This document shows, in pieces, positions 41,281 through 44,589 of a stretch of 64,000 nt of DNA. The position numbers and the translations under genes were made by a program. Numbering within the stretch: position 1 is the first letter of the stretch; each line of letters starts with the position of its first letter. Source of the stretch: Limisphaerales bacterium. GTDB taxonomy: Bacteria > Verrucomicrobiota > Verrucomicrobiia > Limisphaerales > SXQI01. The notes under the pieces were generated by a model. It searched no databases and was not told the DNA's origin. It saw only the letters and a list, made by a program, of their open reading frames with translations. Location of the stretch: NCBI GenBank assembly GCA_044226545.1, contig JBGAGW010000001.1:199844-263843 (forward strand). The letters are read 5' to 3'.

Positions 41281-41760
41281 TTCGCGGCCAAGTCGATGCC
41301 GCCGAGTACAAACACGTCGTTCTCGGCCTCCTCTTCCTCAAATACATCTCCGACTCGTTCGAATCCCGTCGCGACGACCTCCGCGCCGAACTTACGCGTG
41401 ACGGCATCAAAGGCGCGCAACTCGACGGCCTCCTCGAATCCCGCGACGAGTACACCGCCGAGCGCGTCTTCTGGGTCCCGCCCGAATCCCGCTGGCCGAA
41501 CCTCCAGAACCAGGCCACCCGGCCCGACATCGCCACCCTCATCGACGACGCGATCCTCGCCGTCGAGCGCGACAACCCGAACCTCAAAGGCAAACTCCCC
41601 CGCGATTACGCCCGCCGCGGCATCGGCCAAGCTCGGCGAACAACCCGCCGATACCTTCCTCGCGACCAGAAACGCGACCTCAAGAGCGGACATCGTGCTC
41701 GCTGATCAGCCCTTCTACGGCGAAGACTGTTCCGGCCAGCTTTCAGCTTCGAGGGAATAG
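41211..41760 (+). pseudogene. hsdM: Type I R-M methyltransferase subunit remnant (N-terminal domain, internal deletion, frameshift, degenerate motif IV)
   Basis: '[35 protein letters not shown]...NPNLKGKLPRDYARR' is the HsdM_N domain. A shifted frame then reads 'LGEQPADTFLATRNATSRADIVLADQPFYGE', equivalent to the region around NPPF motif IV, here DQPF. The SAM-binding core is absent. Confidence 0.8.
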
Positions 41761-42567
41761 CGGCATCCAGTCGGAATCGTCGGCGTGGAGAATGGCGAGG
41801 GAGTTGTTGGGGCATTGGTGTGCAAGAACGAGCACCAAGCCGCAGTCGCCGAACCCCAGTGGTTTGGCTGGAGACGCGCGATTACAATAGTGCTTTACCC
41901 GCCGTTTTTCATACTCCGAAAAGTGCGAGCAATCAGCGTGCGGCAGGCTGTCGCGCGTACCGAGATGCCGATGTGAAAGCAGATCAACACGGGTCTCGGT
42001 CCGCACGCGTTGCTCACCAACCACGAAAGAGGCGACCGTCAGCAGGTAAACGTGTCCCACGCCTGCGGAAAGTTCATCAAAAATGTCGATCCAAGCGTCG
42101 ACGGCCTGCTTGCCGGAGCCGATGAAGTCATCAACGAACACCAGCGAATCCTCTGAGCCGAGACGAGCGGAAGGAATGTCGCTACGTCCGATGAATAAAG
42201 GGTTATAGTACCGTTCGGTGAGTCCGTTTGCGAGCCGGAAACGGTGCAGCATTGCATCCCCGCTCTCGCCTGCGGTTCGCGAGAAGGGTGCGAATCGGAA
42301 CTCCCCATGACGCTCAGCCTTTTGACGATGCCACCCCGGAATCCGCGCCAGCAGAGATCTGAATGCTGCATCGATCTCCTCTGCCGGAATGAATTCTACG
42401 GCATCGAGCACGCGCGCGGCAATGCAACGATCGGACTTTGAGAACTGAGTGAGCCACTCCTGCAATTTTGCGTCTGTCACCCCGAACCGATAGCCCTCAA
42501 AGCGCATCCGCCATGTAGCGCGCCGCCGATTGTCGATCGGTGTCTCCGGAGAGCGTGGCTTCCTCAT
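41743..42567 (-). CDS. Phosphoribosyltransferase-like (PRTase-like) protein, third gene of the MTase-ParB-PRTase operon
   Basis: 'EDSLVFVDDFIGSGKQAVDAW' resembles the PRPP-binding loop (hydrophobic run-DD-x3-SG). The ATG at 42565-42567 overlaps the upstream stop (ATGA). The domain call needs profile confirmation. Confidence 0.5.
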   Translation of the reverse strand: MRKPRSPETPIDNRRRATWRMRFEGYRFGVTDAKLQEWLTQFSKSDRCIAARVLDAVEFIPAEEIDAAFRSLLARIPGWHRQKAERHGEFRFAPFSRTAGESGDAMLHRFRLANGLTERYYNPLFIGRSDIPSARLGSEDSLVFVDDFIGSGKQAVDAWIDIFDELSAGVGHVYLLTVASFVVGEQRVRTETRVDLLSHRHLGTRDSLPHADCSHFSEYEKRRVKHYCNRASPAKPLGFGDCGLVLVLAHQCPNNSLAILHADDSDWMPLFPRS

Positions 42568-43517
42568 GGGCGCAGTCTTCGGTCCGCTTTGAGCAGTAGC
42601 GACCGGAGTTGCCTCATCAACTTCTCCATCGCGTCCCACATCTCCCCTTCGCCGTACATGAGTTCGACGTCGATCTCTTCGAGTCGTACAGAGAGATTCC
42701 GAACGTCCTTGATCAGATTACGGGCGAGGGCGTGCGACTCGGCGTCCTTTACCTCCAAAATATCGACCGTCGCCTTCGGGTCATCCGCAAAGGTCTTCAG
42801 GCGGTTCGAGATCGTCTGGACTCGATTCGCCTTGACGGCGTTATTGATGTGCTGTTTGACCACACGAAAGTCCGTGACTGCTTTTAGGCCCTTACTTTCC
42901 CACTTCTCGATCATCTGGTCCGTAAACTTGACCGGTTTGAACCAGTCGAACTTCCGGACGTTCCGGTCGTGTCGGACAGGATATAGCTCAATGAAAAAGT
43001 CGGCCTTCGTGCGCTGCTCTGGATTTGGGTCGAGCATCATCTCCTGATACTTCTTCTCGTAGGAAAGAAGCTTCTTGCAACGCACCACTACGGCCTCATC
43101 AAGACCCGTCAGTGCGGCCACGCGCTTGTTGTTCGAGTCCTTGGTTTCCTCCATCAGCAGTTCGAGCTTGAGCGCGGTCGGCATCAGTTCCCAGTCTTCG
43201 CGCAGTTTATGGATCTGGAACATCGTCACGATGTTTTGAACCAAAGTCGGTTCCTCGACCTCATTCGCAGGCACCTTGTTCAGGCCGATCGCTTTAGCGC
43301 ACATCCACCGCCGTTGGCCGTCGAGTATGACGTAGCGCTTCGTCTTCGAATCGCGATAAACGGTGAGAGGGACGAGTACGCCCACCTTTGCAATAGACGA
43401 CTGTAGGGTTTCGAGGGGGAGTTTGTCGAACAGCCGCCGTGGATTGTGCGGGTTCGGGTCTAGGCTATCGACCTCGATCTGCTTAACACCGATAACTTGT
43501 GCCCCAAGCTCACTCAT
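42564..43517 (-). CDS. ParB/Srx N-terminal-domain protein with HTH and helical C-terminal region
   Basis: 'IEVDSLDPNPHNPRR', 'VLVPLTVYRDSKTKRYVILDGQRRWMCAKAIG' (GxxRxxA arginine-patch-like), 'NKRVAALTGLDEAVVVRCKKLL' (HTH-like). The ATG at 43515-43517 overlaps the Dam stop (ATGA). Confidence 0.75.
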   Translation of the reverse strand: MSELGAQVIGVKQIEVDSLDPNPHNPRRLFDKLPLETLQSSIAKVGVLVPLTVYRDSKTKRYVILDGQRRWMCAKAIGLNKVPANEVEEPTLVQNIVTMFQIHKLREDWELMPTALKLELLMEETKDSNNKRVAALTGLDEAVVVRCKKLLSYEKKYQEMMLDPNPEQRTKADFFIELYPVRHDRNVRKFDWFKPVKFTDQMIEKWESKGLKAVTDFRVVKQHINNAVKANRVQTISNRLKTFADDPKATVDILEVKDAESHALARNLIKDVRNLSVRLEEIDVELMYGEGEMWDAMEKLMRQLRSLLLKADRRLRP

Positions 43518-44422
43518 GGCGCCTCCGGCCTCGGAATGGGCAGGTTCGTGATTAGCAATTCCGCCGCTATCTTGCGCTTGGATGCGAAGCCGGCTATGTG
43601 TCGGCGGACTTGAACGGTGGTCCAATTCCAGTGCTTGGCGATCTCGCGTGCCCGCGGGCAATCGGCGTAGGAGACCAGGAATGACGCAGAGCGTTCTTCA
43701 ATCCGGTCGAGATGTCGCGACAGACGGTTAAGATCATCTCCACCGAACGACCGCTTGCCGTATTCGACGAAGGTGCGAACGCCAGTGGCGGCAAAAGGCG
43801 GATCAAGATAGACGAAGTCGCCTTTGCGAACGCGTCGTAAGGTTGCGCCGAAATCGCCTCGAAGTAGTAACGCTTTCTTCAAAAGGTCTGATGTGGTGCT
43901 GAAATCGCATTGGCGCGGATACTGTCCTTGGTCAGCGCCGAATGGCACGTTGAAATCGCCATTGAGATTCGTACGAAAAATGCCATTAAAGCAATTGCGA
44001 TTCAGATAAACGAACTGCGCGGTCCGCTCGACGGCGGCAGTCGATGTGTTGTATGATCGTCGCACTTGGTAATAGGTTTTCGAGTCGCGAGGAATAGCGT
44101 AAAGCGCTTCCGCAACTGCACGGGGCTTATCACGGATCGTTTCATAAGCGTCCATTAATGCGGAATTAAGGTCGGCGAGAATTGCGACCTTAGGCTTAAG
44201 TTTCAGGAATAGGCAGGCCGACCCAACGAAAGGCTCAACATATCTTTCAAACGTGTCGTTCCAGAAAGCTGCGAGGCAGGCGAGCGTCTTTCTTTTGCTT
44301 CCGGCCCAGCGAAATATTGGCACGACGTCACCAAACGCTAAGCGATCGTCACTTGGCCGATTATCCAACGAGACACAAGATTTCACTTCAGCGCTTCGGG
44401 CGTTTTGTCTCGTGAGTTTCAT
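43514..44422 (-). CDS. Dam-family (D12 class) N6-adenine DNA methyltransferase
   Basis: 'FRWAGSKRK', 'VEPFVGSACLF', 'YLNRNCFNGIFRTNLNGDFNVPFG', 'DFVYLDPPF'. Start uncertain: ATG 44422 is proposed, and the ORF is open to 44566. Confidence 0.85.
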   Translation of the reverse strand: MKLTRQNARSAEVKSCVSLDNRPSDDRLAFGDVVPIFRWAGSKRKTLACLAAFWNDTFERYVEPFVGSACLFLKLKPKVAILADLNSALMDAYETIRDKPRAVAEALYAIPRDSKTYYQVRRSYNTSTAAVERTAQFVYLNRNCFNGIFRTNLNGDFNVPFGADQGQYPRQCDFSTTSDLLKKALLLRGDFGATLRRVRKGDFVYLDPPFAATGVRTFVEYGKRSFGGDDLNRLSRHLDRIEERSASFLVSYADCPRAREIAKHWNWTTVQVRRHIAGFASKRKIAAELLITNLPIPRPEAP

Positions 44423-44589
44423 TTTCGACCGATTATCAGAAAAGGTCCGCCTGACGCAAGTTTTTGCCGGAAAGTACGGCAAGTGCAATTCCGCAGCAAA
44501 GATTAACCCGTTGTAGCCTTCTTTCAGCCTCTGATTTACTCCGCGGCCTTGGACGCCTACCTGCAACCGTGCTCCGAATCTATCTAGGC

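Follow-up and report, generated by a model that had tools for sequence, protein, structure and literature searches.

What function could join a DNA methylase, an orphan ParB-like protein and a phosphoribosyltransferase (PRTase) in one compact cassette, set among the remains of a type I restriction-modification (R-M) locus? The question is raised by a 64,000-nucleotide stretch of a Limisphaerales genome (contig JBGAGW010000001.1, positions 199,844 to 263,843), here called the window, whose features are collected in Table 1. Judging from the open reading frames (ORFs) of the window, the cassette consists of three intact minus-strand genes in the order methylase (gene 1), ParB-like gene (gene 2) and PRTase gene (gene 3), and the catalytic motifs are intact in all three proteins. 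A first-pass annotation had described these genes as chained by two ATGA overlaps, and direct reading found both of them, as gccATGAgtg and cccATGAgga on the reverse strand; the motifs of the three proteins also lie where that annotation had put them. Its right-hand end of the operon, 44566, did not hold, being merely the most upstream TTG of the gene 1 frame. The likely start is the ATG at 44422, which matches the gene call on an identical public contig (L077), and homologues of gene 1 align from residue ~20-35 onward only. Gene 3 starts at the ATG at 42567; the database version of 254 aa is too short because residues 1-20 are conserved in the family. We infer a conflict module of three genes that is complete in itself, moves horizontally and has R-M-like logic but no nuclease; we class it with the methylation-based self/non-self modules, as a candidate with an abortive-infection-type effector. 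The account that we favour, with a little less than even confidence and partly by analogy, is that the methylase marks self, the ParB-like clamp senses unmarked DNA and the PRTase effector drains phosphoribosyl pyrophosphate (PRPP).

The trio co-occurs elsewhere, which the first-pass annotation had supposed of a genuine system. A search with gene 3 returned 129 close homologues of 274-289 aa, and in all six long contigs inspected the D12 methylase, ParB_N and PRTase-CE genes stood in the same order among unrelated neighbours. Scanning one genome per GTDB species (185,579 species) yielded 66 loci, and a separate metagenome scan added 80. Loci were found in Planctomycetota, Acidobacteriota, Verrucomicrobiota, Alpha-, Beta- and Gammaproteobacteria, Bacteroidota, Ignavibacteriae and Nitrospira, and further ones in NC10, Chloroflexi, Actinobacteriota, Armatimonadetes, Sumerlaeota, Eisenbacteria, Binatia and Patescibacteria; a Syntrophales locus came from contig inspection, outside the genome scan. 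The total is ~150 loci in at least 17 bacterial lineages; this near-constant recurrence, with no named system found to match, makes the cassette a strong candidate for a new module of immunity or addiction based on methylation. The ParB-like gene lay directly upstream of the PRTase gene in 62 of the 68 non-duplicate genome loci, or 62 of the 65 that were testable (three of the other six were too short, and the exceptions were two PRTase fragments and one outgroup of 27% identity), and in 71 of 72 testable metagenome loci. When all loci seeded by the PRTase were combined, the pair held in 133 of 137 testable cases, with a methylase adjacent. The single testable metagenome locus that departs from this arrangement (L104, 262-993) is on a short contig; instead of the ParB-like gene it carries an opposite-strand ORF with a DGQHR motif, typical of the DndB/DUF262-type ParB superfamily.

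The junction between the ParB-like stop and the PRTase start is equally constrained, with an overlap of 4 nt in 40 of 54 loci and of 1 nt in 6 more. Across 74 loci, pairwise identities of the ParB-like protein and the PRTase were strongly correlated (r = 0.92), and each correlated less with the methylase (ParB-methylase 0.64; PRTase-methylase 0.60), indicating that the ParB-like protein and the PRTase form a co-evolving core with the methylase as an exchangeable partner. No conserved fourth gene appeared: the 128 ORFs within 5 kb matched 170 Pfam families, each in at most two ORFs. Flanking genes differ at every locus, and in the nearest relative cassette (82% nucleotide identity) homology spans 41742-44332 only, reaching from the stop codon of the PRTase gene into the methylase gene at codon ~30, with different flanks. 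Among 2.9 million viral contigs of IMG/VR there was no relative of the ParB-like family, and among the PLSDB plasmids the cassette was not found, the only relatives there being PRTase-CE proteins of at most 30% identity. Taken together, these results indicate, as read from sequence, that the three genes are co-transcribed, translationally coupled and inherited together across phyla. In a cassette from a Lichenihabitans metagenome-assembled genome (MAG; L068, 5663-6946), an IS66-like transposase gene lies between the ParB-like and PRTase genes, and therefore the cassette can be inactivated by insertion sequences (IS).

Gene 3 had been called PRTase-like from its PRPP-loop-like VFVDDFIGSGK, and the family was confirmed over its full length by Pfam PF24390 (1.1e-39; 137.3 bits, cut-off 27; residues 36-273 aligned with positions 2-253 of the profile). 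PADLOC (2023 release of its database) matched it to the retron type III-A effector model PRTase_III-A alone (2.3e-30), in line with the earlier suggestion that PRTase-like domains act as effectors in conflict systems. Residues R15, W19 and Y26 are invariant in the family, and D146, D147, P253 and N254 are invariant in 23 homologues. The retron Gx14PNNxP motif reads G238-x14-P253 N254 N255 S L, with the last P replaced by L, following the definition of Gx14PNN for retron PRTases in PMC12746101. The AlphaFold model (mean predicted local distance difference test, pLDDT, 85) matched type I PRTases (UPRT, APRT, OPRT) in Foldseek at E 6e-5. When triggered, the PRTase effector of Retron-Eco11 depletes PRPP and brings about abortive infection (PMC12746101), and PRTase toxins also work in ShosTA and DS-32.

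The cassette thus resembles type III-A retrons such as Retron-Eco11 in its effector family, its PRPP loop and its Gx14PNN motif. The effectors of these retrons are also paired with a DNA-binding partner, a winged helix-turn-helix (wHTH) domain or protein, whereas the partner here is a ParB-type clamp that binds nucleoside triphosphates (NTPs). In place of a retron's reverse transcriptase (RT), its noncoding RNA (ncRNA) and its wHTH, the cassette has this clamp and a methylase, and its trigger is probably epigenetic rather than guarded by multicopy single-stranded DNA (msDNA) as in retrons. No RT was present in the window, where YxDD-like matches were the PRPP loop and a spurious antisense ORF, or in the related loci; a search of 39000-47000 with Rfam, whose coverage of retron ncRNAs is partial, gave no match at E <= 0.1. 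Lacking an RT, the cassette falls outside the definition of a retron, and this candidate was ruled out.

Could the PRTase instead take part in chemical modification? In this alternative, already raised by the first-pass annotation, the enzyme would transfer phosphoribose from PRPP to DNA or nucleotides, the ParB-like protein would provide targeting (compare DndB and DpdB) and the methylase would supply or complement the mark. ParB-like proteins are indeed known in the Dnd, Dpd and Ssp modification systems, and in DS-32 the partner of the PRTase is a NADAR (DarG-like) glycohydrolase, a hint that some defence PRTases modify macromolecules. However, gene 3 scores only 25.8 bits against the DS-32A model NF053875, whose cut-off is 250, and its nearest characterised homologue works by PRPP depletion. 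Moreover, no other biosynthetic or restriction genes are linked to the cassette, and it is absent from the viral contigs of IMG/VR, although hypermodification pathways are common in phages. We give this alternative little credence.

We then turn from the putative effector to gene 2, which had been described as a ParB N-terminal protein with DGQRRW, a helix-turn-helix (HTH) and no ParA partner, all of which was confirmed. It matched Pfam PF02195 ParB_N at 2.1e-16, and in phmmer searches against the PDB its N-terminal domain and HTH (residues 5-160) aligned with C. crescentus ParB (1.2e-12) and B. subtilis Spo0J (1.7e-11). The AlphaFold model (pLDDT 85), in which the last ~100 residues are helical, retrieved CDP- or CTP-bound ParB, Noc and KorB in Foldseek over ~215 aligned columns. 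Because of these alignments and fold matches, gene 2 is a clamp-type ParB and not a DUF262/DndB-type protein, and the earlier comparison with GmrSD- and DndB-type modules gives way to a canonical ParB/Noc/KorB clamp with an HTH. With those clamps it shares the fold and the three-part architecture of an NTP-binding GxRR domain, an HTH and C-terminal helices; unlike them, it has no ParA, carries N and Q in place of Q and E, and sits with a methylase and an effector enzyme.

A profile of the family collected 153 clusters (50% identity) at E <= 1e-30, most of them 310-335 aa and full length. Aligned with C. crescentus and B. subtilis ParB, the canonical PNPxQPR has become PNPHNPR and GERRxRA has become GQRRWMCA; N25, Q68, R69 and R70 are invariant among 25 family members, the HTH is near-invariant in the same set, and Box III of gene 2 is divergent (TMFQIHKLRxDW). 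The Q and E replaced here are reportedly the residues of CTP hydrolysis, and the arginines are said to bind the triphosphate. We take the hydrolysis residues to be Q58/E102 in C. crescentus and Q52/E93 in M. xanthus; the PDB titles among the Foldseek matches of gene 2 include "Q52A" and "E93A". Since the GxRR arginines are kept while Q is changed to N and E to Q, the family probably binds NTP and hydrolyses it poorly. As to ParA, the deviant Walker A motif KGGxGK[ST] occurred in none of the ORFs of at least 150 aa in the whole window, and ParA was also absent from the annotated related loci. The ParA-binding motif LG(R/K)GL, as defined in bioRxiv 10.1101/2025.10.10.680097, was found neither in gene 2 nor in the variable N-termini of 25 family members.

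A further feature of gene 2 is a 17-bp inverted repeat, AACATCGTSACGATGTT (8+1+8; S is G on the minus strand of the gene and C on the plus strand), which covers codons N95-F100. Of 120 related loci, 66 have it in perfect form, and no other shared perfect palindrome was found. The codon choice within its arms is biased: ACG encodes T98 in 77% of loci, compared with 13-50% at other invariant threonines, and I96 = ATC and N95 = AAC are likewise favoured, while the third base at the centre is free to vary. Between I96 and T98, the paired third positions covary (odds ratio 8.7, p = 2.5e-4) above control pairs matched for GC content. The palindrome may be a site at which the ParB-like protein binds or loads, or it may form a hairpin in the mRNA.

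Such a site recalls those of the parS type; in addition, gene 2 just passes TIGR00180 (61.5 bits; cut-off 58.45), and the source databases label it "ParB/RepB/Spo0J family partition protein". These points would suit a housekeeping origin, in which chance has linked an orphan Dam to a ParB-type factor for partition or transcription and to a PRTase of nucleotide salvage. We consider this very improbable. ParA is missing from the window and the related loci, its binding motif is missing too, and the hydrolysis residues are replaced; gene 3 matches the conflict-effector family at 1e-39 but salvage PRTase profiles at E >= 0.013 at best; and the cassette is patchy, mobile, confined to ~0.04% of species and not on plasmids. 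Lacking ParA, the ParA-binding motif and the hydrolysis residues, the cassette falls outside the definition of ParABS even though it has the ParB architecture, and a partition module was ruled out by the first two of these and by its absence from plasmids. Nor is a routine phage or plasmid partition-methylase module the answer, a possibility that the earlier annotation had left standing: there is no ParA, no IMG/VR match and no PLSDB relative above 30% identity.

Returning to the proposed marking of self, gene 1 was confirmed as a D12-class adenine methylase, as its motifs had suggested, by Pfam PF02086 (5.5e-39) and TIGR00571 dam (1.2e-61; 208.7 bits, cut-off 114.85). In PADLOC it matched generic methylases (MTase_II, 2e-65). 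A GATC target is plausible because the closest solved structures are those of the GATC methylases DpnM (2.4e-35) and E. coli Dam (5e-29); the observed/expected ratio of GATC, 1.64 in the cassettes and 1.65 in the window, is uninformative. A methylase gene adjoins the ParB-like/PRTase pair in all resolvable loci, with its type and position varying. It is Dam-like and directly upstream in 48 + 42 loci, and Dam-like but downstream, on either strand, in 5 + 3. Elsewhere its place is taken by a C5 cytosine methylase (L010), by divergent D12 methylases that are long, at 409-510 aa (L011, L034, L062, L063, L068 and L116), or by an ORF with a DPPY motif on the opposite strand (L096); in two further loci the sequence stops at or just past the PRTase. 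When we tabulated which gene was broken, apparent breaks were mainly divergent methylase subfamilies or frameshifts in long-read MAGs.

This exchange of methylases is an R-M-like signature: as in R-M systems, the methylase swaps family and position while the partner genes stay constant. With R-M, BREX, DISARM and MADS the cassette also shares a methylase tightly linked to non-methylase genes in a compact, mobile module. Unlike these systems, it has no recognisable nuclease, PglZ, BrxC or helicase-type component, and genes 2 and 3 matched no nuclease family in Pfam, PADLOC or NCBIfam. Its presumed effector is an enzyme of nucleotide metabolism, with an outcome resembling abortive infection, whereas the R-M effector cleaves DNA. 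Because it has no endonuclease, the cassette falls outside the definition of R-M, although it does have a methylase of the type II kind.

If the methylase can be exchanged, is the effector exchangeable as well? The ParB-like family has a sister clade of 2292 proteins at E <= 1e-20, in which the canonical GERR is kept. The sister cassettes in Sphingopyxis granuli CP012199 (L158, 4802-7828) and Mesorhizobium sp. USDA 4775 (L160, 4784-7825) combine a long D12 methylase of 400 aa with a ParB-like gene and with another gene, the third, whose product has 284-292 aa. This product is unrelated to PRTase-CE and had no match in Pfam, PADLOC or the PDB; it has a conserved FRNTASHP (Rx4H) motif, reminiscent at the motif level of HEPN RNases. 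The methylase-ParB module is thus shared while the third gene differs, as one would expect if a sensor module could be fitted with different effectors. In S. granuli, the copy is located in a region resembling an integrative and conjugative element (ICE), with relaxase, TrbC, VirB3 and ParDE genes.

PRTase-CE proteins, in turn, occur with other partners. In a Bacteroidales MAG (L070, 5640-10017), a distant PRTase-CE with 27% identity is flanked by an N6/N4 methylase, directly upstream, and by an ORC/Cdc6-like ATPase (PF24389); the effector family is shared with our cassette, and an AAA+ ORC/Cdc6-like NTPase takes the place of ParB. On the Rhizobium beringeri plasmid pRlX2 (L074, 4926-8820), a PRTase-CE gene stands beside a split ORC/Cdc6-like gene (PF24389), with SIR2 nearby. 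These neighbourhoods suggest that PRTase-CE is an effector common to several DNA-binding NTPases. One protein of the representative library (P0265, 400 aa) joins a ParB N-terminal domain and HTH (ParB residues 1-193) to PRTase-CE from about residue 90, without the C-terminal region of ParB and the N-terminal helices of the PRTase; this one case may have arisen as a natural fusion or else by deletion. The L070, L158 and L160 neighbourhoods share a tripartite logic of methylase, DNA-binding NTPase and effector, and the picture is of a modular wider family in which the effector can be swapped.

Under the account that we favour, the methylase would mark the host genome as self, and the ParB-like protein would load as a long-lived, NTP-bound clamp on DNA without the mark, that is, incoming phage or plasmid DNA, or host DNA after loss of the cassette. 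Once bound to DNA, the ParB-like protein would switch on the PRTase, which would use up PRPP and make the nucleotide supply collapse, by analogy with the Retron-Eco11 effector; the outcome would be abortive infection or post-segregational killing. A more general version is possible but, to our minds, doubtful: a ParB-type NTP-gated clamp may have been turned into an innate-immune sensor for epigenetic non-self. Loaded on DNA without the cognate methyl mark, and locked there because its nucleotide is not hydrolysed, it would allosterically activate a swappable effector. The proposed effectors are PRTase-CE here and the unrelated Rx4H-motif protein in the sister clade. In that case methylase, ParB-like protein and effector would make up a new family of defence systems that are based on methylation and use no nuclease.

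Several points weigh against the favoured account. The palindrome could mean that the ParB-like protein binds its own locus, in autoregulation, and not foreign DNA. No conserved operator or parS site was found upstream of the operons, where the best k-mers were common to ~20% of 47 loci at most. Nucleotide specificity and clamp behaviour are not predictable from sequence (bioRxiv 10.1101/2025.10.10.680097), and the one pointer to the specificity of gene 1 is its likeness to DpnM and Dam. Because the HTH is near-invariant and the methylases include N6-adenine (m6A) and C5-cytosine (m5C) enzymes, the account also demands that unrelated methylases modify the same or overlapping sites. The cassette is rare, its 66 genome loci amounting to roughly 0.04% of species. 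PADLOC matches are sporadic among the 128 neighbouring ORFs (two type I and two type IV restriction endonucleases, and generic kinases and ATPases), and by Pfam the neighbours in other genomes are mostly housekeeping genes. Finally, a defence function, like the mechanism, is deduced here from sequence.

The division of labour within the cassette may also be drawn differently, with the ParB-like protein itself restricting unmethylated DNA as a nuclease or NTP-degrading ParB/Srx enzyme, and the PRTase as an accessory or backup. Nuclease and NTPase activity has been reported for some ParB/Srx proteins (Maindola et al. 2014, as cited in PMC10853773), several PHROG relatives carry a nuclease label, and the catalytic-site substitutions are likely functional and not decay, because they are invariant in the clade. 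We nevertheless regard such a role as improbable. Fold and domain order are those of the clamp-type ParB, Noc and KorB, neither Pfam nor PADLOC detected a nuclease family in gene 2, and the third gene is marked as the effector both by the tight coupling and co-evolution of ParB-like protein and PRTase and by the different gene that stands in third place in the sister clade.

As the first-pass annotation had stated, the cassette lies antiparallel between an hsdM stub and an hsdR stub and beside an IS element, which was confirmed by PF12161, PF11867 and the terminal inverted repeats. Because stubs of HsdM_N and of the HsdR C-terminus flank it, the cassette has replaced the core of a type I R-M locus. 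The defence-island context proposed from this holds in the window and does not hold elsewhere, where the cassette sits among unrelated housekeeping genes; enrichment in defence islands is not claimed, because PADLOC matches among the neighbours are sporadic.

It is unlikely, in our estimate, that the cassette is purely a selfish addiction module, in which methylation would decay after loss of the genes, the ParB-like protein and PRTase would become active and the cell would die, so that the module is selected for its own persistence, like a type II R-M system or a toxin-antitoxin pair; the molecular logic would be that of the favoured account. Isolated insertion of three genes among housekeeping genes without conserved flanks, wide horizontal spread across phyla, weak association with defence genes and the sister-clade copy beside ParDE in an ICE-like region all agree with addiction. 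On the other hand, homologous PRTase effectors serve phage defence, here the cassette displaced the core of a type I R-M locus, which fits the turnover of immune modules, and an R-M-like system can serve immunity and addiction at once.

Should the cassette prove to serve immunity or addiction, it would contain the first clamp-type ParB, of the CTP-switch family, to act as a sensing component in defence, and a retron PRTase effector driven by a quite different, epigenetic trigger. It would offer a tractable model for a DNA-bound NTP switch that controls a metabolic toxin; hundreds of database entries named "chromosome partitioning protein ParB" would then need correcting. The hypothesis is directly testable because there are members in cultured strains, namely Candidatus Koribacter versatilis Ellin345 (Acid345_1095 with its two upstream neighbours) and, in the sister clade, S. 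granuli and Mesorhizobium sp. USDA 4775.

Does the cassette already have a name? PADLOC, Pfam and NCBIfam leave the trio unassigned, in agreement with the first-pass annotation, which knew of no named system combining all three parts. A full-text literature search, with papers in subscription journals outside its reach, did not find methylase, ParB and PRTase as one system, and a 2025 survey of orphan ParB-CTPase proteins does not mention phosphoribosyltransferases. We see a small but appreciable chance that the cassette has been named somewhere.

Individual candidates were rejected as follows. ShosTA (through ShosT) and DS-32 (NADAR and PRTase) share with the cassette a toxic or effector component of the PRTase fold in an anti-phage system. 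ShosTA was ruled out because no ShosT or ShosA model of PADLOC matched at E <= 1 and the DprA-like ShosA is absent, and DS-32 by the score given above and the lack of NADAR in the cassette or its neighbours. PD-Lambda-5 was ruled out as well: its A model reached E 0.0058 (14.6 bits over 37 residues), and its B model 1.3e-11 against 2e-65 for MTase_II. Dnd, Ssp, Dpd and GmrSD/BrxU likewise place an NTP-binding domain of the ParB/Srx superfamily in a modification-linked conflict system; they were ruled out because gene 2 is of the clamp type, had no significant match in PADLOC, and has neither their partner genes nor HNH/DUF1524.

Table 1. Coordinates of the cassette, its motifs and its flanking features in the window
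Feature	Position	Strand	Remarks
Gene 1, Dam/DpnM-family (D12 class) N6-adenine DNA methyltransferase, 302 aa	43514-44422	-	PF02086, TIGR00571
Gene 1 motif EPFVGSA	44216-44236	-	S-adenosylmethionine
Gene 1 motif NRNCFNGIFR	43973-44002	-	
Gene 1 motif DPPF	43793-43804	-	catalytic
ATGA overlap, methylase stop / ParB-like start	43514-43517	-	direct reading
Gene 2, orphan ParB-like protein, 317 aa	42564-43517	-	ParB/Srx NTP-binding domain, HTH, helical C-terminal region
Gene 2 motif PNPHNPR	43437-43457	-	
Gene 2 motif DGQRRW	43305-43322	-	
17-bp inverted repeat in gene 2	43219-43235		single copy in the window
Gene 2 HTH, LTGLDEAVVVRCKKLLSY	43059-43112	-	
ATGA overlap, ParB-like stop / PRTase start	42564-42567	-	direct reading
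Gene 3, PRTase-CE (retron type III-A-like phosphoribosyltransferase effector), 274 aa	41743-42567	-	PF24390, PADLOC PRTase_III-A
Gene 3 motif GESGD	42256-42270	-	
Gene 3 motif VFVDDFIGSGK	42109-42141	-	PRPP loop
Gene 3 motif Gx14PNN (GFGDCG...CPNN)	41803-41856	-	
Truncated hsdM, N-terminal domain only	41211-41705	+	PF12161 HsdM_N, 8.4e-26
hsdR C-terminal remnant	44783-45010	+	PF11867 T1RH-like_C, 7.1e-18, profile positions 275-328 of 329 (last 54)
IS element	45004-46304	-	29-nt terminal inverted repeats, 45004-45032 and 46276-46304
rve-type transposase ORF in the IS	45107-46264	-	PF00665 rve, 2.8e-5, under the Pfam cut-off

The surroundings of the cassette show some further repeats. A 20-nt inverted repeat with 95% complementarity connects the 3' end of the methylase gene (43592-43611) with the hsdR C-terminal stub (44850-44869). 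On the hsdM side, the region 40148-41288 contains three copies of a 125-nt repeat (40148-40272, 40564-40688 and 40867-40991), whose core 39-mer is identical in the three copies and occurs nowhere else in the window. These copies had no Rfam match and are interleaved with duplicated pieces of the hsdM promoter and 5' end (40304-40559 matches 41024-41288; 40824-40850 matches 41595-41621); the arrangement may reflect a small repeat that is mobile, or a scar left by recombination as the type I R-M locus decayed. About 4 kb away from the cassette, a probable toxin-antitoxin pair on the minus strand (DUF3368, PIN-like, 36672-37184; UPF0175, 37165-37539) sits among housekeeping genes and is followed by LpxD-like and PanD-like ORFs.

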